Origin: an uncultured Opitutaceae bacterium
GTDB lineage: Bacteria; Verrucomicrobiota; Verrucomicrobiia; Opitutales; Opitutaceae
NCBI GenBank assembly: GCA_964512415.1
Contig: CAZEJZ010000001.1
Location: forward strand, 1 to 26,549
Direction of reading: 5' to 3'
Length of the DNA stretch: 26,549 nucleotides
How positions within the stretch are numbered: position 1 is the stretch's first letter; each line of letters opens with the position of its first letter. The notes under the pieces were generated by a model. It worked only from the letters and a program-made list of their open reading frames with translations, did no database searches and was not told where the DNA came from. The translations under genes were made by a program, and so were the position numbers. Below, one piece after another: positions 15,651-26,549 of this stretch.

Positions 15651-16820
15651 CTAGGAAGCCGCCGGTGCGGATCCGGTGCCGCGCTTGAACCGCCCCGGCG
15701 AGAAGAGGCCGATGTCGAGGCGCGAACGGCCGTCGACCACCAGCTGGGCGAGGATTTCTCCGACGACGCTGCAGAATTTGAAGCCGTGCCCGGAGAAGCC
15801 GCAGGCCACCGTCACGCGCGGGCTGGCCGGATGCGGCGCGATCACGAAGTGCTTGTCCGGCGTGTTCGTGTACAGGCAGGTGACGCCTTGCAGCAGCGGT
15901 CCGCGCAGCGCCGGCAGCAGGGGCTCGATCGCCTGCCGCATCAGCGCGATCTCGCGGGGGCGCAGCACGCGGTCGACCGAATCCGGATCGCAGCGCTCCA
16001 CCTCGGGGGCCCGGTAGAAGGCGACCTTCACCCCGCCCTTCGGCCCGTCGATCGCCGGGAACCCGTACGGTGACGCCCCGTCGGGCGTTTCCCAGATGAA
16101 GATCGGGAAGTGCCCGAACCGGAACGGCTCGATGCCTCCCACCGGATCAAACCAGTACAGCACCTGCCGCTCCACCTCGAGCGGCACCCCGAGGTCCGCC
16201 AGCACGGTCGGGGCCCAAGGTCCGGGGCACACCACCAGGCGCTCCGCCTCGTAGGTGCCGCGCGCGGTCCGGACACGCACGCCCCACGAAGTCTCCTCCC
16301 ACGCCAGCGCAGGCTCCTCGAAGCGCAGCTCCGCGCCGAGCGCGGCCGCCCGGTCAAGGTGGGCCTGCACCGACGCCTCCGTGCGGACGAATCCCGCGGC
16401 GCGCTCGTACAGCGCGACCGTTCCGGGCGGCGGCTGGAACGCCGGGAAACGGCGCCGGATGTCGGCCGCGGTCAGTTCCTCGTGCGGCAATCCATAGAGG
16501 CGTGCACTCCGCAGACTTCCCGTCACCACGGCGCTCGAAGGATCACCCATCATCAGGCCGCCCACCTCGTGCAGGAGATCGACCCCCGTTTCGCGGGACA
16601 GTTCGCGCCACAACTCGTACGCGCGGAGCAGCAGCGGCACGTAGGCCGGGTCCTCATAGTAGCTCTGCCGGATCACCCGGGTGCGCCCATGGCTCGCCCC
16701 CCGGTCGTGCGGCGCGGTGTAGCGCTCCAGCCCCACCACACGGAGTCCGCGCCGCGCCAGATGGCAGGCCGCGGCGCTTCCCATTCCACCCAACCCAAGA
16801 ACAATGACGTCAGCAGGCAT
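15651..16820 (-). CDS. solA: N-methyl-L-tryptophan oxidase / monomeric sarcosine oxidase family flavoprotein, 389 aa
   Basis: VIVLGLGGMGS (GxGxxG); HDRGASHGRTRVIRQSYYE; TCLYTNTPD (position of the covalent-FAD Cys); GFSGHGFKF. Confidence 0.92.
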   Translation of the reverse strand: MPADVIVLGLGGMGSAAACHLARRGLRVVGLERYTAPHDRGASHGRTRVIRQSYYEDPAYVPLLLRAYELWRELSRETGVDLLHEVGGLMMGDPSSAVVTGSLRSARLYGLPHEELTAADIRRRFPAFQPPPGTVALYERAAGFVRTEASVQAHLDRAAALGAELRFEEPALAWEETSWGVRVRTARGTYEAERLVVCPGPWAPTVLADLGVPLEVERQVLYWFDPVGGIEPFRFGHFPIFIWETPDGASPYGFPAIDGPKGGVKVAFYRAPEVERCDPDSVDRVLRPREIALMRQAIEPLLPALRGPLLQGVTCLYTNTPDKHFVIAPHPASPRVTVACGFSGHGFKFCSVVGEILAQLVVDGRSRLDIGLFSPGRFKRGTGSAPAAS

Positions 16821-17686: not shown

Positions 17687-20098
17687 TCACGGAATCTCGT
17701 AGATCTCAAGCAGGGCGTCGCCTGGCGTGCCACTCCCCTGCACTTGCACGATGTAGGCGGCCCCCGCGGTGAGGTTGAGGCGTACGGCGGCCGACTTCGC
17801 ATCCCCATCCAGCGGGAACGCGCCGGCGGCGGCGAAGTCGGCGGCCGTGACCCTCTGCGCCCAGTCATCGTTGTCCGCCGCACGCACCCCGTTGCGGAAG
17901 ACCTCAAGCCGCGGATCCGCCGCGACCCCGGTCAAGCCGAGCGCGGTCAGTCTCGGACCGACGGCCCGGACAAGGACCGCCTGAGCGCCATTGCCCAAGA
18001 CCACGAACCCGGCGGTCAGTCTCTCCCCGGGACCACCGATCCTCCCGCGCGTCGAGAAATTCCGCAGTCTCGCGCCGGGCCCGGCGCCGTAGACCTCAAT
18101 GAGGGCCTCACCGGAGGAACGGGCCGCGAGGTGCAGCGTGTGCGCCCCCGAAACCGCCCGGGTGATGACCGCATCCCGGCTGCCGATCGGCAGCGCAAAC
18201 GCCCCCACGGCCGCCATCAGAGTCTGATTGGCCGGCGTCGCCACCCAGTCGTCGTTCGCCTCCAAGAGCGTCGCACCCGAATAGATCTCCAACCGCGGAT
18301 CGCCCACGGCACCCGCCACGCCGAACGGCGCCAGACCCGGTCCGACGCCGCGCAGGAGCATCGAGTCAGCCCCCGAGACGGAGAAGCCAACGATGGACGG
18401 CTGCCCCGCAGAGACCGTGGCCCGAATCGAGCCATTGACGATCCGCGCCACCGTCGGCCTCACCTCCAGCACCGCGACCGAGCCGTCGATCGAACCTTCA
18501 ATGCCCTCGTAACCCACGAGGAGGATCGGCGTCCGTGTCGGACTCTCGACTGCGGGCACGAAGACGAGCGTCTCGGGCGAGACGAAGCGCGTGCCGGTGA
18601 TGACGTTGATGCCGTCGACGAGATTGTAGTATCCGACGATCGAGACGTTGTTCAGGTCGGTGACGTCGAACTGGAAGATGCCACCCTGCCGCTCGGCGCC
18701 CACGAAGACGTACTGGCGCCCGTCCACCTCACCATAGGCCAACGCCTCCGGCTCCGGACCCTTGTCGTCCGAGCGCGTGTCGATCGCGGTGGTCGTGCCA
18801 TTGTTCATGTTGAAGGTCAGCGGGGCGTTGGCCCGGACGAAGTCCTCCAGCATCGAACCGCTGTCGAAGACGCGCTGTCCCTGCTCGTCCCAGAGCGAGA
18901 AGCTGCGCGTACCGATCATCGTCGGTTCCTCAATGAGGGGATCCGCGTCGAGGTTCCCGTCGAAGCGCGAGATCGTGAGCCGCCCGAGCCCGGTGGATTC
19001 ACTGAGGCTGCCGGAAAAGGCGAGGTCTCCGGGGCCGTCGGCCACCACGTCGACCACGTTCGCCGCACCGGCCCGCACGACGTCGCCGTCGTCCGTGCGG
19101 GCATCCCCTTCGTTGGCGGTGGCGAGCAGACGCCGACCTCCCTGCAGGAAGGTCGCGATCGTATCGGGCATCGGCAGGCCCGGGACGACGTCGTCAATGT
19201 TGATGGCTGCCAAGCCGCCGTTCACGGGGTCACGGTCCGAGGCGTCGATCCGCTGCCGGATGGTGCCGAGGGGCAGGATCGCCGAGATCCGCGGCGCGCC
19301 ACCGCCCTCCAGCTCCACGACGGCGATCCCGTTGTTCTCCTGCAGCGTGACGTAGGCGCGCTCGTTCGTTGTCGAGGCAAACTCCGGCTCGACATGGAGG
19401 TAGCGGTCTGCGGGCGCAATGCCCGCGACGTTGAAACGCAGGCCGTCGAGCGTCACGCCCGGCGCGAGTCCGTCCCGAAAATCCACCGTGGCGACCAACG
19501 GCGCCCGCAGCTGGAGATCGGTCGAGCCATTGACGCCGGTGAGGTTCACGATGCTGACGGAGCCGGGAGCCTGGGCGGCTCCGGCGGTGAACTCCCCTTC
19601 GTTCGCCACGATCAGGCGACGGCCATCCGGCGTGAAGCGCACGGCATCCGGATGGAATCCGACGTCCACCACGCGGAGGATCGCGCCCGTCTGCACGTCG
19701 AAGAACGCCACTTTTCCCGGGACGGTGGTGTTGTCCTTCGGGATGATGCTCGCGACGCCAAACCCGCGGCTGCGCGGATCCGCCGCGACGCTGCTGACCG
19801 AGAGGGTCGCGCTGGCACCGAAGATCGCGTCGAACTCCGCCACCGCCTGCGGCGTGAGCGCTCCCGAGGCGGCGAGCGAGTAGATGTCAACCCGGTGACT
19901 CACGCCGGACGTGCGCGCGAGCGAGTTCGTCACCAGCACGCGATCCGGCCCGGAAGCCGCGTTGTAGTGGGCCACCACTTCGCCGCCACCCGGAATCGTG
20001 ACGCCAGACAGCAGCGTGAGTTCCGCCCGGAGCGGAGGCGAGGCGAAGAAGAGGGTGAGGGCGCAGAAGGACGAGAGGAGTCGCGGTGGGGTGAGCAT
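17687..20098 (-). CDS. Secreted choice-of-anchor I family protein (beta-propeller, often annotated alkaline phosphatase) with a tandem Opitutaceae-type C-terminal domain, 803 aa
   Basis: Signal peptide; family motifs VANEGE, EPEF...AYVTLQENNGIAVV, DASDRD, MPDTIA, ANEGDAR, GTRSFSLW, RSDDKGPEPE, FVGAER.GGI; two C-terminal repeats ending ...ALLEIYEIP. Confidence 0.85.
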   Translation of the reverse strand: MLTPPRLLSSFCALTLFFASPPLRAELTLLSGVTIPGGGEVVAHYNAASGPDRVLVTNSLARTSGVSHRVDIYSLAASGALTPQAVAEFDAIFGASATLSVSSVAADPRSRGFGVASIIPKDNTTVPGKVAFFDVQTGAILRVVDVGFHPDAVRFTPDGRRLIVANEGEFTAGAAQAPGSVSIVNLTGVNGSTDLQLRAPLVATVDFRDGLAPGVTLDGLRFNVAGIAPADRYLHVEPEFASTTNERAYVTLQENNGIAVVELEGGGAPRISAILPLGTIRQRIDASDRDPVNGGLAAINIDDVVPGLPMPDTIATFLQGGRRLLATANEGDARTDDGDVVRAGAANVVDVVADGPGDLAFSGSLSESTGLGRLTISRFDGNLDADPLIEEPTMIGTRSFSLWDEQGQRVFDSGSMLEDFVRANAPLTFNMNNGTTTAIDTRSDDKGPEPEALAYGEVDGRQYVFVGAERQGGIFQFDVTDLNNVSIVGYYNLVDGINVITGTRFVSPETLVFVPAVESPTRTPILLVGYEGIEGSIDGSVAVLEVRPTVARIVNGSIRATVSAGQPSIVGFSVSGADSMLLRGVGPGLAPFGVAGAVGDPRLEIYSGATLLEANDDWVATPANQTLMAAVGAFALPIGSRDAVITRAVSGAHTLHLAARSSGEALIEVYGAGPGARLRNFSTRGRIGGPGERLTAGFVVLGNGAQAVLVRAVGPRLTALGLTGVAADPRLEVFRNGVRAADNDDWAQRVTAADFAAAGAFPLDGDAKSAAVRLNLTAGAAYIVQVQGSGTPGDALLEIYEIP

Positions 20099-20216: not shown

Positions 20217-21182
20217 ATGCAACGCCGCCACTTCCTCGGCCGCCTCGCCGCCGGCGCCACCCTCGGAACCGCCGCCGCCCCCTTCCTCGCCGCCAGCGCC
20301 CCACCCGCGCCCCGTCCCAGGCACCGGGTCCTGCGCGTCGCGCACCTCACCGACCCGCACGTCTTCGGGGACCGCGGCGCCGACGCCGGCCTCGCGGAGG
20401 CCCTGCGGCATGCCCAGGCGGCCAAACCTGACTTCCTCTTTTTCGGGGGCGACCTAGTGATGGATGCGCTCGGCAAGGAGAAGGACGCCGCGATCGCGCA
20501 GTGGTCGCTGTGGGAGCGGGTCCTCGCCGCCGAGCTGCGCACCCCGCACCACGCCTGCGTCGGAAACCACGATGTCTGGGGATGGAAGCTCCGCGATGCC
20601 GCCGGGACCGCCGCCGCCACGGATCCGCTCTTCGGCAAGGGCATGGCCCTCGAGCGCCTTGCCCTGCGCGACCGCTACTACTCCTTCAACCAGGCCGGCT
20701 GGCATTTCATCATCCTCGATTCCACGCAGCGGGTGGATGATCCGAAAATCGGATACACGGCCCGGCTGGACGACCAGCAGTTCGAGTGGCTGGTGCGCGA
20801 TCTCGCGGCCACGCCCCCCGCCACGCCGGTCTGCGTGCTGTCGCACATCCCCATTCTCTCCGCCTGCACCTTCCTCGACGGCGAGAACGAGAAGACCGGC
20901 AACTGGCAGGTGCCCGGACAATGGATGCACCTCGACGCGCGGCGGCTGAAGACGCTCTTCCGCCAGCACCCGAACGTGAAGGCGTGCCTCTCCGGCCACA
21001 TCCACCTCGTCGACGAGGTCTCCTATCTGGGGGTGCGCTACTTCTGCAACGGCGCCGTCTCCGGGGGCTGGTGGAAGGGACCGTACCAGGAGTTCGGTCC
21101 GGCCTACGCCGTCGTCGATTTCTACGACGACGGCTCGCTCGACAATCGCCTCGTCTACTACCGCCAGCCGGCGGGCGCCTAG
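20217..21182 (+). CDS. Metallophosphoesterase (Icc/CpdA-like, calcineurin-like fold) with a Tat signal, 321 aa
   Basis: MQRRHFL signal; motifs DPH, GGD, GNHD, SH, GHIH. Confidence 0.92.
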   Translation: MQRRHFLGRLAAGATLGTAAAPFLAASAPPAPRPRHRVLRVAHLTDPHVFGDRGADAGLAEALRHAQAAKPDFLFFGGDLVMDALGKEKDAAIAQWSLWERVLAAELRTPHHACVGNHDVWGWKLRDAAGTAAATDPLFGKGMALERLALRDRYYSFNQAGWHFIILDSTQRVDDPKIGYTARLDDQQFEWLVRDLAATPPATPVCVLSHIPILSACTFLDGENEKTGNWQVPGQWMHLDARRLKTLFRQHPNVKACLSGHIHLVDEVSYLGVRYFCNGAVSGGWWKGPYQEFGPAYAVVDFYDDGSLDNRLVYYRQPAGA

Positions 21183-22444
21183 ACGAGCGGCGTCTCGCCG
21201 GGGATCGGCACGGCGCCGAAGATGCCCGGGCCGGGCGCGGGATTCTTCGGGAAGAGGTCCAGCTTCGAGCCGCTGAGCAGCCAGCTCCACGAGATCTCGC
21301 GGCCCGAGTAGGCCGCCATGCGGCCGCCAATCGCGGTCAGCGTGCTCTCCGCGATGCGGATGCCGTCGTTGATCGGGTTGTTGGCGCGGATGCTCGTGAT
21401 CAGGTCCGTGTGCTCCTGCACCATCGGGTCCACCGCCGGTCCGCTGAACTCGTAAGGCTTCGCCCCCTTGATCCAGCGGCTCGGGTCGGACGTGCCCTTG
21501 GTGCCGACGACGCGCTCGCCGACCCGGCCCATCGTCTTCGCCGCATGGCGGCAGAAGCTCGTGACGCGGGCCCCGTTCGCGTACTCCAGCTCGACGGCGA
21601 AGTGATCCCAGATGTTGCCGGGGATGCTGCCACGGTTCTGGCGTCCGCCCATGCCGGAGAACTTCACCGGGGGACCGCCGTAGGCCCAGTTCATCACGTC
21701 GATGTTGTGGATGTGCTGCTCGACGATCTGGTCGCCGCTCAGCCAGTCCCAGTGGTACCAGTTCCAGCACTGCCACTCGAAGTCGCTCAGGTCCGCCAGC
21801 CAGTCCTTCTTCTCGCGGAACCAGATGCCCTCGCTGTTCCAGTAGCACTGGCCGCCGACCAGCTCCCCGAGGTCACCGTCGTGGATGCGCTTCATCACCT
21901 CGAGGTAGCTGGCCTGATGGCGGCGCTGGGTGCCGACGCCGACGCCGAGATTCTTCTGCTTGGCCAGACGCGAGGCTTCGATTACCGCGCGGGCTCCGAC
22001 CGGGTCGACGGCCACGGGCTTCTCCATGAACACGTGCTTGCCTGCGGCGACCGCGGCGGCGAAATGGCTCGGTCGGAATCCGGGCGGCGCGGCGAGGATC
22101 ACCAGGTCCACGTCCGTCGCGAGGAGCTTCTGGTAGCAGTCGAAGCCGTGAAAGCACTTCTCCGCCGGCACCTTGAAGCGCTCACGAAGGCGCTCGGTCT
22201 GGCGCGGGAACAGGTCGGCCAGCGCGACGATCTCGACGCCGGGTGCCGCATCGAGGCAGTTCTTGGCCGCTCCGGAACCACGGCCGCCGCAGCCGATCAG
22301 GCCGACGCGAATCCGGTCCGAGCCGCCGGTCGCGCCGAACGCGCGGGGCATCGGGCTGGTCGCAAGCAACCCCGCCCCTGCGGTCAGCGCGGACAGGCGG
22401 ACGAAGGAGCGGCGGGTCAGGGAGGTATCTTCGGGGATGTTCAT
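21179..22444 (-). CDS. Gfo/Idh/MocA family oxidoreductase with a Tat signal, 421 aa
   Basis: LTRRSFV signal; VGLIGCGGRG; HVFMEKP; EQHIHNID. ATG at 22444. Its stop overlaps the stop of the convergent phosphoesterase gene (shared CTAG at 21179-21182). Confidence 0.92.
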   Translation of the reverse strand: MNIPEDTSLTRRSFVRLSALTAGAGLLATSPMPRAFGATGGSDRIRVGLIGCGGRGSGAAKNCLDAAPGVEIVALADLFPRQTERLRERFKVPAEKCFHGFDCYQKLLATDVDLVILAAPPGFRPSHFAAAVAAGKHVFMEKPVAVDPVGARAVIEASRLAKQKNLGVGVGTQRRHQASYLEVMKRIHDGDLGELVGGQCYWNSEGIWFREKKDWLADLSDFEWQCWNWYHWDWLSGDQIVEQHIHNIDVMNWAYGGPPVKFSGMGGRQNRGSIPGNIWDHFAVELEYANGARVTSFCRHAAKTMGRVGERVVGTKGTSDPSRWIKGAKPYEFSGPAVDPMVQEHTDLITSIRANNPINDGIRIAESTLTAIGGRMAAYSGREISWSWLLSGSKLDLFPKNPAPGPGIFGAVPIPGETPLV

Positions 22445-22497: not shown

Positions 22498-23703
22498 CTA
22501 GGAAGTCGGGGCAAGATTCTCGGCCACCGGGACGCGGTACGCCTTGAGCGCGGGGACGATCCCGCCGACGGCGCAGAGTGCGATCATCGCCAGCGGCGCG
22601 ATCCAGAGCACGGGATGCCCCGCCAGCACGTCGATGACCACGCCGGTCTGCGCCCGGATGATCCGCGCGACCCCCGCGAGCAGGGCGCCATAGACCACGA
22701 ATCCCGCCAGCGCGCCCAGCGCGCCGATGACAGCGGCCTCGGTCACCACGGCCGTGAAGAGGGTGTGACGGCGGGCGCCGAGGGCACGAAGGATGGCAAG
22801 GTCGCGGCGACGCGCGCTCATCGAGGCGTAGATGCTGGCGAGCACGCTGCCCGCCGCCACGAACGCCACGAGATAGGCGACCAGCGCGAGCACGCGGTCG
22901 AACCATCCGATCTTGCCGAAGAGGTCCGCGATGATCGCACCCACCGGGTACGCGAAGGTCAGGCGATTCCCCTGCCGGTTGTACATCATGTCCAACATGA
23001 ATCCCGCCTGCGGCGTGCGCAACTGGAGCAGCACCGCGCTGAGATCCGTGGCGAACTTGGGGTCATGCCCCTTCATGTTCTGGATGCCCGCGAGCGGGAT
23101 CCACAGCACGCGGTCTGCCGGCGTATTCGTCGGTTCGAGGATGCCGACCACCGTGTAGACTTCCTCGTGCTGATTGGCCGGGTCGAAGACGAGCCCATGA
23201 AAAGGCTGGAAGGTGTCGCCGACCCGCAGACCCAGTCGCTCGGCCACGAACGATCCCACCAGCGCCTCGTGCGCCGCGCCGGCGAAGACCCGGCCGCCCG
23301 GCTGCACCGCATAGCGACGGCCCCGCGCATACTCGACGCGCGTGAAGAGGTCCTCGATCGTGCCAACGATGCGGTAGCCACGGTAGTTGTCGCCCACCGC
23401 CAGCGGAATCGCCGCCTTCACCGCGGGGTGGCGGCGGATCTGTTCGAAGTCGGCGGCGGCGATGTTTCCCGGCGACGCTTCCAGATGGAAGATGGCGTTG
23501 AGCACGAGTTGCAGCCGGGACCCCCGCGCCCCGAGCACCGCATCGAAACCCGTGCTCGTCTCGACGAACGCGCGCTGGGACTGGGCCTTCACCATCCACA
23601 CCACCATCAGAAGTCCCACCGCGAGGGCGATGCTCCCCGCCGTCACGAGCGTGGAGAGCGCATGCTGCCGAAGGCTGCGGTAAAGAATGAGCGGCAGGGT
23701 CAT
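22498..23703 (-). CDS. ABC transporter permease, MacB/FtsX (LolE-like) family, 401 aa
   Basis: One N-terminal TM, a large periplasmic domain (GARGSRLQLVLNAIFH), then SARRRDLAILRALGARR and three C-terminal TMs. Confidence 0.9.
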   Translation of the reverse strand: MTLPLILYRSLRQHALSTLVTAGSIALAVGLLMVVWMVKAQSQRAFVETSTGFDAVLGARGSRLQLVLNAIFHLEASPGNIAAADFEQIRRHPAVKAAIPLAVGDNYRGYRIVGTIEDLFTRVEYARGRRYAVQPGGRVFAGAAHEALVGSFVAERLGLRVGDTFQPFHGLVFDPANQHEEVYTVVGILEPTNTPADRVLWIPLAGIQNMKGHDPKFATDLSAVLLQLRTPQAGFMLDMMYNRQGNRLTFAYPVGAIIADLFGKIGWFDRVLALVAYLVAFVAAGSVLASIYASMSARRRDLAILRALGARRHTLFTAVVTEAAVIGALGALAGFVVYGALLAGVARIIRAQTGVVIDVLAGHPVLWIAPLAMIALCAVGGIVPALKAYRVPVAENLAPTS

Positions 23704-23716
23704 GGTAACCAGATGC

Positions 23717-24400
23717 TCAGGTGGCGCTCGGTGCCGCGGGGCGGTTGAGCTCGGCGAAGTCGCGCACGGGGCTGAACTGGGCGAGCACCTCCGGGTCGTG
23801 GCTGACCAGCAGCAAGGCCGCCCCGGCCTCGGCGCACGCCTCGCGGATCAGGGCGAGCGCCTCCTGCCCGCGGCGGCGGTCGAGGTTGCCGGTGGGTTCG
23901 TCCGCAAGCACGAGCCGCGGCCGGTTGGCCAGCGCCCGGGCAACCGCGACGCGCTGCTGCTGGCCGGTGGAGAGCTGCCGCGGGAAGTGCTGCAAACGCG
24001 CTCCGAGGCCCACGCGCTCCAGCAGGGCCCGGGCATGGGCCCGGTCAACCCGGCCCCCGCCGAAACTCATTCCCAGCACCACGTTCTCCAGGACCGTGAA
24101 TCCCTGCAGGAGGTTGAACGTCTGGAAAATGTAGCCCATCCGTTCGGCGCGCAGGCGGTCCCGCGCCGCCTCGCCCAACGCGACCAGATTCGTGCCATCG
24201 AAGTCGATCCGGCCCGAGTCGGCCGCGAGCAATCCCGCGATCAGGTTCAGGAAGGTCGTCTTGCCGGATCCGCTCTCGCCGCGGAGGGCGACCTGCTCAC
24301 CGGCGCCAAGCGCGAAGTGCGCGACGTGCACGATCTCGACCGGCCGCCCGCCCGCCTCGGGCGAGGGGAAGGACTTGCGGAGGTCGGTGATCGTCAGCAC
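23717..24400 (-). CDS. ABC transporter ATP-binding protein, LolD/MacB-like, 227 aa
   Basis: Walker A GESGSGKT; Q-loop IFQ; signature LSTGQQQ; Walker B/D-loop LADEPTGNLD; H-loop VSHD; GTG start. Confidence 0.93.
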   Translation of the reverse strand: MLTITDLRKSFPSPEAGGRPVEIVHVAHFALGAGEQVALRGESGSGKTTFLNLIAGLLAADSGRIDFDGTNLVALGEAARDRLRAERMGYIFQTFNLLQGFTVLENVVLGMSFGGGRVDRAHARALLERVGLGARLQHFPRQLSTGQQQRVAVARALANRPRLVLADEPTGNLDRRRGQEALALIREACAEAGAALLLVSHDPEVLAQFSPVRDFAELNRPAAPSAT

Positions 24401-24436: not shown

Positions 24437-26281
24437 TCAGTCTTGCGCGGATTTTTTCGTCGCCTTGCGCGCCGGACGCGCGGGGGACGCGCCCTCGGCC
24501 TCCGGTGACGCCTCGTCGGTCGAACGGGACGCTTTGCGCTTGGCCTTCGCCTTGGCCTGCAGACGCAGGACGCCGTCCTTCGCGCCCTTCTCCAGCCACA
24601 GCTGTTCGTCGGCCAGATCGACCGGCACCGACTTTCCTCCGTCCTCCGTCGGCGCCGACAAACCGGCGGCCGCGAGTGCCGCGAGGAGGTCGGTCTCGCC
24701 CTGACCGGTCGCTGCCGCGAGGTCGGCGACGGACGCCGCCGCGCCGCCGCGAGGTTTTGCTTCCAGACGCGAGCGCAGGCTGGCCAGGAGCGCTTCGCCG
24801 GCCGCGGGCGCCGCCGCCGCCGCGGGTGCGGGAGCCGGACCGGCGGCCACGGCAGGCTCGGGGATGAGGGCGGGGGCGGGCGTAAGCGTCGGTTCGGGAG
24901 ACGGTGCCACCGAGGTCGGCGCGGCCGGAGACTCAGCCGCCGGGGCCGGACTATCTGCCGCGGGCGCGGATGCCGGGACCGCCTCGGCCACGGGTGCGTT
25001 CGCCGGCGCCGGAGACGCCCCGGGGGCGCCCCGATCGCGCTCACTCCGCTTGCGACCATTGATCCAAAGACCACCGCGGCCGTCCTGATTCAGCCAATAC
25101 GACCAGTTGCCCACGTCGAGCGGGGCGGGACGGTCGTTCGGGCCCGACGGCACGATGAAACCGACCGACACCAGCGTCGCCGTGAACTCCTGCTCGGTCT
25201 GCTTGAGCGCGCGGGACAGGAAGCTGATGCTGCCGGACACGCCGGGGCTGCGCCGGTTGCGACGCATCAAGGGCCGGAGCCGGCGGAGCAGGTCGGCCGC
25301 CGGGCCGGTGGCCTCGGGCTCCGGCGTGGTGTCCGGCGCGGAATCGTCCTCGTTGCCTCCCGCGCCGGTTCCCGTGTCCTCCGCAGCCGAAACCGCAACG
25401 GGAGCGGGAGCGGCGGACTCCACCGGTGCGGTCGCCACCGCCTCCGGCGTCGTTGCCGCCGCCGGTGCAGCCTCCACCCGTCCGCGACGGCTGCCGTTGT
25501 CCTGGCGGCCCCCGCGATCGTCCACCGGCTTTTCCGGCGCGGCGACGGGCTGGCCCTTGACGGTGCGGAACACCGGGCGTGGCTTCTCCTTGGTGTTGAT
25601 GAAGAGCTGGTGGTGACGATTCACGTTCACCCAGTACAGGTCCCCGTCGTACTCCAGGTACACGGGATCGTCGTCCTCCCGCTCGGGGATGACGAAATCA
25701 CACTCGCGCAGCGCGGCCATGACTTCGGCCGGCGTCAGGTCGATCTTGTTCGCGAGGTAATCGACCGCGAGGGACATGCCCGGGCCGCGCTGGTTGCGGC
25801 GCATGTGCGGACGGATGAACTCGAAGAAGCTCGGAAGCTCCTGCTCCGATTCGAGTTTCTTCCACTCGTCGTCCTCGTCCTCGGCCAACTCCTCGGGATC
25901 CTGATCGCGATCCGTGTCGCGCAGACGACGGAGACCATCCTCCCCGGCTGCGGCCTCCGCGACGAGCGAGGCGGGCTTGTCCTCGGCCGCGGCGGCCGAC
26001 GAGGCGCCGGCCTGAGCCGCCTGGAACTTGGCCGCGAATTCCGCGCGCAGCTTCTCGGCTTCGGCCTTGGCCGCCGCCGCCGCCGCGTCCTCCAGGGTCC
26101 AGTCGCGCTGGGTGGTCCGCCGCGCGAGACCTTGGAAGGCGAGCGGGTTGTCCGGTTGCGTGTGAAAAGCGATGATCTCCCACTCGTCCTTGCCGAGCTG
26201 GTTGAGATGCGTCTCCAGGAGGGCCGGGCTGCCAAAGCCGCCTTTGCCGCTGCTGATGATCTTATATTCCCAAAGGGCCAT
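24437..26281 (-). CDS. Hypothetical protein, 614 aa: N-terminal DUF4177-like domain, three repeated ~80-aa domains, Ala/Pro-rich linkers, basic tail
   Basis: MALWEYKII...LETHLNQLGKDEWEII resembles DUF4177; internal repeats are visible by eye; ATG at 26281 is preferred over the upstream extension. Confidence 0.8.
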   Translation of the reverse strand: MALWEYKIISSGKGGFGSPALLETHLNQLGKDEWEIIAFHTQPDNPLAFQGLARRTTQRDWTLEDAAAAAAKAEAEKLRAEFAAKFQAAQAGASSAAAAEDKPASLVAEAAAGEDGLRRLRDTDRDQDPEELAEDEDDEWKKLESEQELPSFFEFIRPHMRRNQRGPGMSLAVDYLANKIDLTPAEVMAALRECDFVIPEREDDDPVYLEYDGDLYWVNVNRHHQLFINTKEKPRPVFRTVKGQPVAAPEKPVDDRGGRQDNGSRRGRVEAAPAAATTPEAVATAPVESAAPAPVAVSAAEDTGTGAGGNEDDSAPDTTPEPEATGPAADLLRRLRPLMRRNRRSPGVSGSISFLSRALKQTEQEFTATLVSVGFIVPSGPNDRPAPLDVGNWSYWLNQDGRGGLWINGRKRSERDRGAPGASPAPANAPVAEAVPASAPAADSPAPAAESPAAPTSVAPSPEPTLTPAPALIPEPAVAAGPAPAPAAAAAPAAGEALLASLRSRLEAKPRGGAAASVADLAAATGQGETDLLAALAAAGLSAPTEDGGKSVPVDLADEQLWLEKGAKDGVLRLQAKAKAKRKASRSTDEASPEAEGASPARPARKATKKSAQD

Positions 26282-26403
26282 GTTGGATTTCCTGTCTGTT
26301 GTTGCCGCTGACCGCCAAGGAATCCCAAATGCAGCTCGGATTGCCGAGCCTAATCGTCTCCCCGCACCCGCCCCATCCCCATCCGCATCCGCCGTTCCCT
26401 GCC

Positions 26404-26549
26404 ATGCTCCGCCCACTCACGTTCTTCGCCCTCGCCTCCGCGCTGCTCGCCGGCCCGCCCTCCGGACACGCCGCGGCGCCCAAATCCGGCGCCGCTTGGC
26501 CGGTCCCGGCGCCCGCCGACGAACGCGCCGCCGCCGTCCAGGTGCGCGT
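26404..26549 (+). CDS. 5' fragment of a probable secreted protein (3'-partial)
   Basis: ATG at 26404 gives MLRPLTFFALASALLAGPPSGHAAAP..., a signal-peptide-like sequence; the frame is open to the window end. Confidence 0.55.
   Translation, partial: MLRPLTFFALASALLAGPPSGHAAAPKSGAAWPVPAPADERAAAVQVR

Follow-up and report, generated by a model that had tools for sequence, protein, structure and literature searches.

A stretch of 26,549 nucleotides from an uncultured Opitutaceae bacterium (GenBank assembly GCA_964512415.1, contig CAZEJZ010000001.1; hereafter the window) carries on its minus strand, at positions 24437-26281, a real and conserved gene whose product is at present a well-defined protein without an assigned function. 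This protein contains three copies (R1, R2, and R3) of a domain of approximately 85 residues, which represents a family absent from Pfam and NCBIfam. The reading favored here, to which a probability of roughly 40% is assigned, is that of a multivalent putative nucleic-acid binder acting via Arg-rich hairpins of R1 and R2. It is preferred because invariant Arg, Asn, and Gly-Pro-Gly residues that cluster on a hairpin next to a wing are typical of polyanion contact, and because the predicted fold class holds many DNA and RNA binders.

Translation of this interval, from an ATG at 26281 to a stop codon at 24437-24439, yields a product of 614 residues. The same minus-strand frame (24437-26416) is open over 659 codons when counted from a GTG at 26416. 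This upstream start was rejected, as the corresponding extensions are variable, unaligned, and present in some homologues only, and the ATG was assigned as the start because aligned homologues have a common M-[AS]-[LI]-W-E-Y-K N-terminus. A word-index search retrieved over 1,367 homologues, of which almost all are unnamed or annotated as "hypothetical" or "DUF4177 domain-containing" and come from Opitutaceae or Verrucomicrobia bins; the JGI label "HemP" on one of them looks spurious. From the N- to the C-terminus, the protein consists of a DUF4177-like domain, an Ala-rich helix, an acidic linker containing a short motif, the three repeats joined by Ala/Pro-rich linkers, and a basic C-terminal cluster. 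A first-pass annotation, made from the letters of the window, had described this arrangement, and its observation as a whole was borne out, with both the open reading frame and its coordinates being correct.

The repeats had been placed at residues 152-233, 331-412, and 498-578, which correspond exactly to positions 25828-25583, 25291-25046, and 24790-24548. With a hidden Markov model (HMM) of the repeat, three matches were obtained in this genome, at 25580-25831, 25043-25297, and 24539-24799. Single-sequence BLASTP related R1 to R2 (E 8e-12) but gave E 0.008 for R3 against R2 and nothing against R1, a result that is unconvincing alone. Per-position alignments were therefore built from 24 diverse homologues, from which residue conservation was also read, and the derived profiles were compared using hhalign over 81-85 columns. 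These profile-profile comparisons scored 99.8% (E 1e-28) for R1/R2, 99.6% (E 7e-25) for R2/R3, and 99.2% (E 1.4e-19) for R1/R3, and the three copies are therefore homologous. The proposal that the repeats align significantly thus holds, as does the description of the domain as unrecognised, since no domain library matched it.

Conservation decreases from R1 to R3. R1 (residues 150-240; 25562-25834), the most conserved copy with a mean column identity of 81%, bears a basic and invariant C-terminal extension, NTKEKPRPVFR. R2 (residues 330-415; 25037-25294; 69%) is the sole clearly basic copy, and R3 (residues 497-578; 24548-24793; 60%) is the most diverged. A maximum-likelihood tree built from 45 copies grouped the sequences by repeat position (support 100/99, 86/73, and 99/98), with the shortest branches in R1 and the longest in R3; the three copies therefore arose before the sampled family diversified, and each has been kept separately. 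The positions common to all three copies belong to the core only, namely a Leu in helix 2, G-x-x-x-P after helix 3, a Trp in the hairpin, and an Asn. The linkers are composed of 27% Ala and 18.5% Pro overall. Linker 1 (residues 241-329; 25295-25561) shows little conservation, is rich in Ala, Pro, Glu, and Gly, and measures 49-98 residues across the family, and linker 2 (residues 416-496; 24794-25036), with 38% Ala and 26% Pro, ranges from 35 to 144 residues.

The structure of R1 was predicted by AlphaFold2 using a 45-row alignment of all three repeat positions. The resulting model (predicted local distance difference test, pLDDT, 89.4; predicted template modeling score 0.77) comprises helices 7-14, 28-34, and 39-48 and strands 24-27, 64-66, 69-75, and 81-87, in the order H-b-H-H-b-b-b. 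As predicted, this arrangement follows the winged-helix topology H1-b1-H2-turn-H3-b2-wing-b3, so that the repeat appears winged-helix-like in topology and distant from any solved family. The first-pass suggestion of a winged-helix pattern is supported by the modeled topology; no profile match to a helix-turn-helix (HTH) or winged-helix family was obtained, and helix 3 is non-basic. Foldseek searches of the Protein Data Bank (PDB) with the R1 and N-terminal models gave no match at E <= 0.001, and re-examination of the candidates for R1 gave the same picture. Shape and feature searches of the ESM Atlas returned only the protein's own Verrucomicrobiota clusters; by shape, these had TM scores of 0.88-0.92, and the next row had 0.48.

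Solved winged helices taken for comparison include ArsR/SmtB and MarR repressors, such as NolR (4omy), SmtB (1r1t), and a MepR-like protein (4xrf), together with the protein-binding modules of UFL1/DDRGK1 (8b9x), ESCRT-II (1w7p), and YjbH (6ghb). Compared with this fold, the repeat has two additions, a long Arg-rich hairpin linking helix 1 with strand 1 and a third long strand in the sheet. It differs from winged-helix families in the lack of any sequence-profile relation as well as in its helix 3, and from the dimeric repressors in forming three tandem copies within an acidic, disordered protein.

In R1, the Arg-rich loop RPHMRRNQRGPG (residues 157-168; 25778-25813), modeled as a hairpin that connects helix 1 to strand 1, contains the invariant residues P158, R161, N163, Q164, R165, G166, and G168. 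The corresponding loop of R2, RPLMRRNRRSPG (residues 336-347; 25241-25276), contains M339, R340, R341, N342, R343, R344, P346, and G347 as invariant residues, and the shared pattern RPxMRRNxRGPG between helix 1 and strand 1 is near-invariant in both copies. R3 has lost the Arg-rich loop and has RSRLEAKPRG-G in its place. The Arg-Asn...Gly-Pro-Gly hairpin is loosely reminiscent of what is presumably an R-N-P-x-T-G tip in the arms of HU/IHF. Of the three copies, R2 has a net charge of +8 in this protein and is positive in 23 of the 24 homologues, with a median of +5.

Basic residues are also found at the C-terminus (residues 579-614; 24440-24547), where KAKAKRK is followed by an acidic run and then by RPARKATKK, giving a net charge of +5 over 36 residues. 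Most of the 24 homologues follow a similar plan, in which an acidic run precedes a terminal cluster such as RRPRPKKK, and the net charge of the last 35 residues ranges from -3 to +9 across the family. Although the basic cluster itself is present, its earlier description as a histone-like basic tail was overstated, given that the whole protein is acidic (isoelectric point, pI, 5.0; net charge -21). The protein is neither net basic nor equipped with the long Lys/Ala-rich tail expected of a histone-like or nucleoid-associated protein. A short Lys/Arg/Ala-rich C-terminus is its likeness to HU/IHF, mycobacterial HupB, and chlamydial Hc1, whereas it is related to HU/IHF, H-NS, and H1 neither in sequence nor in fold, has a pI of about 5, and carries a basic cluster of about 10-15 residues.

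The region preceding the repeats is likewise conserved. Residues 1-63 (26093-26281), for which a strand-helix-strand-strand fold was predicted with pLDDT 80-88, include many invariant residues, and in all 63 family members examined the first 45 or so residues align with the N-terminal two-thirds of the PF13783 (DUF4177) profile. All 63 match this profile at E <= 1 (best E 1.3e-5), which agrees with the first-pass label of a DUF4177-like domain, but the score of the window protein itself (17.1-19.9 bits) stays below the Pfam gathering cut-off of 25. Some orthologues are named "DUF4177 domain-containing protein" by NCBI. DUF4177 proteins are typically short and single-domain, whereas here the domain heads a multidomain protein of about 600 residues. 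The DUF4177 literature found gives no function for the domain. YjzH, a small DUF4177 protein of Bacillus subtilis, was found in an RNA-bound protein fraction (bioRxiv 10.1101/2025.03.21.644579) and provides the sole related literature lead, a weak one, toward nucleic-acid binding. A PDB sequence search with the N-terminal profile returned nothing meaningful, and a two-copy complex prediction for residues 1-100 scored 0.01 against a mark of 0.42, a value that counts neither way on oligomerization. Two further library matches were treated as noise, namely the NCBIfam "Sp36 family" over the DUF4177-like stretch (16.7 bits against a cut-off of 50) and Pfam THEG4 (E 0.42).

The Ala-rich helix and the acidic patch reported earlier are both present. 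The former (residues 64-92; 26006-26092) is near-invariant in the family, with Leu78, Phe82, and Phe86 forming a single hydrophobic stripe, and is modeled at low confidence (helix 63-91, pLDDT 54-61). It is followed by an acidic linker (residues 93-149; 25835-26005) with a net charge of -12 across residues 101-149 and pLDDT below 50 over residues 92-111. Within this otherwise disordered linker lies a nearly invariant short motif, DG-[FL]-R..RDT.RD.DPE (residues 115-129; 25895-25939), which looks like a candidate docking peptide. In the 24 aligned homologues, R118, D122, T123, and D126 are invariant, and D115, G116, R125, D128, P129, and W140 are near-invariant.

In the favored scheme, this Opitutaceae-specific protein would be cytoplasmic, modular, and largely disordered. 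Each repeat would have a winged-helix/IF2_N-like core of strand-helix-helix-strands with an extra N-terminal helix in front, and in both R1 and R2 a near-invariant Arg-rich hairpin (MRRN.RGPG) would protrude on the side of the domain where the sheet lies. Nucleic acid (RNA or DNA) may be contacted by these hairpins together with the basic stretch that follows R1, the positively charged R2, and the basic cluster at the C-terminus. R3, devoid of the hairpin, could have a structural function or bind a partner. Docking or oligomerization of the protein would fall to the N-terminal module and the acidic motif, so that a multivalent tether would result. Such a mode of action would not involve sequence-specific reading by helix 3. 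If the Arg-rich hairpin does bind nucleic acid, it would represent a new binding mode for the winged-helix/IF2_N structural class and might help explain the role of IF2_N-type modules. An extended version of this scheme is considered unlikely. It regards the repeat as a new nucleic-acid-binding module that reads its ligand by the invariant Arg-rich beta-hairpin instead of helix 3, and the protein as a lineage-defining, multivalent, partly disordered organizer of RNA or the nucleoid, possibly condensate-forming, with acidic linkers tuning or auto-inhibiting binding.

Several observations weigh against nucleic-acid binding. Helix 3 (PAEVMAALRE, EQEFTATLVS, and ETDLLAALAA in R1-R3) is nearly devoid of basic residues in every copy and is neutral to acidic in all three, with Ala, Leu, or acidic residues in the family consensus, and thus lacks the basic or polar character of the recognition helix in DNA-binding winged HTH factors. 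All 24 homologues are acidic (pI 4.7-5.8, net charge -6 to -33), R1 has a net charge of -3 to -6 in the family, and R3 is about neutral. Pfam and NCBIfam searches at E <= 10 revealed no match to an HTH or winged-helix family, and a PDB sequence search with the repeat profile returned nothing meaningful. Several of the best-matching winged helices, including those of YjbH, UFL1/DDRGK1, ESCRT-II, PCI, and Scc1, are protein-binding modules. In addition, no neighboring gene suggestive of nucleic-acid metabolism was found in a synteny comparison of 19 loci, including one per each of 15 genera.

Some of these features point instead to a protein-protein interaction hub, a serious rival judged somewhat less probable, in which the winged-helix-like modules and the acidic motif would bind partners, the linkers would act as spacers, and the Arg loops would recognize acidic or phosphorylated partners. 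The net acidic charge across the family, the conserved linear motif within a disordered acidic segment, the non-basic helix 3, and the presence of protein-binding winged helices among the best structural matches are all in line with such a hub, for which acidic bacterial hub proteins such as PopZ offer a comparison. However, those structural matches are too weak to pick a winged-helix subclass, gene context indicates no partner, and the clustering of invariant Arg with Asn and Gly-Pro-Gly is more typical of polyanion contact. Should the protein prove to be a hub, it would be among the few candidate organizing scaffolds known in Verrucomicrobiota.

A further reading, judged improbable, is that of a ribosome- or translation-associated factor, whose repeats would be diverged IF2_N-type modules that dock with their Arg hairpins on rRNA or the ribosome, much as has been proposed for the N-terminal region of IF2. 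IF2_N shares with the repeat a core of strand-helix-turn-helix with the pattern hydrophobic-x-x-LA-x-x-L-G-x-x-x-x-x-L-x-x-x-L-x-x-x-G-hydrophobic, and both occur in more than one copy with disordered linkers between, the Ala/Pro/Glu linkers here being like those of IF2 N-terminal regions; three elements of the repeat have no counterpart in IF2_N, namely the helix at its N-terminus, the Arg-rich hairpin, and the W-x-N...W-I-N hairpin. Weak matches were obtained in both directions. Pfam IF2_N (PF04760) matched 4 of the 24 R3 copies (best E 0.0088), and the repeat profile matched the first IF2_N domain of an IF2 gene downstream of nusA in one Verrucomicrobiota genome (G112; E 5.7e-4). Against an IF2_N alignment assembled from the IF2 genes found in this genome and in related Verrucomicrobiota, hhalign gave 36.6% and 35.4% (E 3.7e-4 to about 4e-4), with alignments of 39-42 columns limited to two helices. 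On the other hand, PF04760 did not match this protein, none of whose repeats reaches any Pfam threshold (the IF2_N gathering cut-off being 25.3 bits), and a six-frame IF2_N scan of this genome, which gave three matches at E <= 0.01 (contigs C630, C636, and C449), passed over the window gene. Furthermore, translation genes are absent nearby, and IF2_N itself has no established ligand. The resemblance to IF2_N, which the first-pass annotation had raised, is thus consistent but sub-threshold and marginal at the sequence level, and does not amount to membership. Less probable still is that the protein regulates, or belongs as an accessory subunit in the cytoplasm to, the ABC transporter whose genes come next on the same strand (22498-24400, 36 bases downstream of the gene), which consists of an ABC ATPase (227 residues, PF00005) and a MacB_PCD/FtsX-type permease (401 residues). 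The order gene, ABC_tran, MacB_PCD/FtsX is identical in the window and at loci L001, L003, and L036, and no terminator-like site was found on the minus strand between the genes. However, the pair follows the gene at only 4 of 19 loci and in only 1 of 15 genus representatives, and the next gene in Opitutus sp. ER46 is unrelated; the adjacency is therefore attributed to inherited local synteny of one subclade.

The protein that is favored here as a nucleic-acid binder has a narrow taxonomic distribution. When 1.84 billion representative proteins were searched exhaustively with the repeat profile using HMMER, 203 clusters were obtained, and all inspected matches of at least 300 residues had the same architecture or were fragments thereof. 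In a six-frame search of 400 sampled Verrucomicrobiota genomes, the repeats were detected in 32 of 35 Opitutaceae genomes, with one gene each and always in a single open frame. Among the other sampled families of the phylum, none was found besides two marginal matches, one being the IF2 gene in genome G112 and the other, in genome G047, an unrelated 212-residue frame considered spurious. The N-terminal module was detected by six-frame search in 24 of 26 Opitutaceae genomes and elsewhere only as two weak stand-alone matches. The first-pass annotation had held that a scaffold of this kind would be notable in the Planctomycetes-Verrucomicrobia-Chlamydiae group; in these searches, the family is confined to Opitutaceae rather than spread across Verrucomicrobiota. 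No matches to PHROGs or PADLOC were obtained for the protein, which therefore shows no phage or defense link, and no paper linking Opitutaceae with a protein of this kind was found.

The single copy and the presence in 32 of 35 family genomes suggest a housekeeping role, probably one without an exact counterpart in other lineages. The protein, which nearly all Opitutaceae genomes carry as one highly conserved copy, could serve as a molecular signature of the family. The three genomes without the repeats, G219 and G399 (of one genus) and G285, have completeness values of 97-99% and, where both were searched, also lack the N-terminal module. They are the smallest of the sampled family (2.1-3.0 Mb), which suggests loss during genome reduction.

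Among the 19 loci compared, no neighbor is universal, and the genomic context therefore offers no functional clue. No operon partner was accepted, as the ABC pair, an esterase, and a pseudouridine synthase each lie beside the gene in only 4-6 of 18-19 loci. The ABC ATPase/permease pair itself looks Lol- or MacB-like, with no membrane-fusion-protein gene alongside. The alpha/beta-hydrolase (BD-FAE/Abhydrolase_3; esterase) is located upstream on the same strand in 6 of 18 loci, and the pseudouridine synthase gene further upstream in six loci. Partial synteny of the hydrolase and pseudouridine synthase genes is seen among loci L027, L033, L039, L001, L003, and L030, with no obvious functional link. 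In the window, about 120 bases upstream of the gene, a divergent plus-strand gene starting with MLRPLTFFALASALLAG (26403-26549) has signal-peptide-like first residues and continues past the window end. Elsewhere in the window, the minus strand encodes an 803-residue protein (17687-20098) with a "choice-of-anchor I" domain (PF22494, E 4e-49), which is probably secreted or surface-located. Close to it are genes for a DAO-family FAD oxidoreductase (15651-16820, minus strand), a calcineurin-like phosphoesterase (20217-21182, plus strand), and a GFO/IDH/MocA oxidoreductase (about 21179-22312, minus strand).

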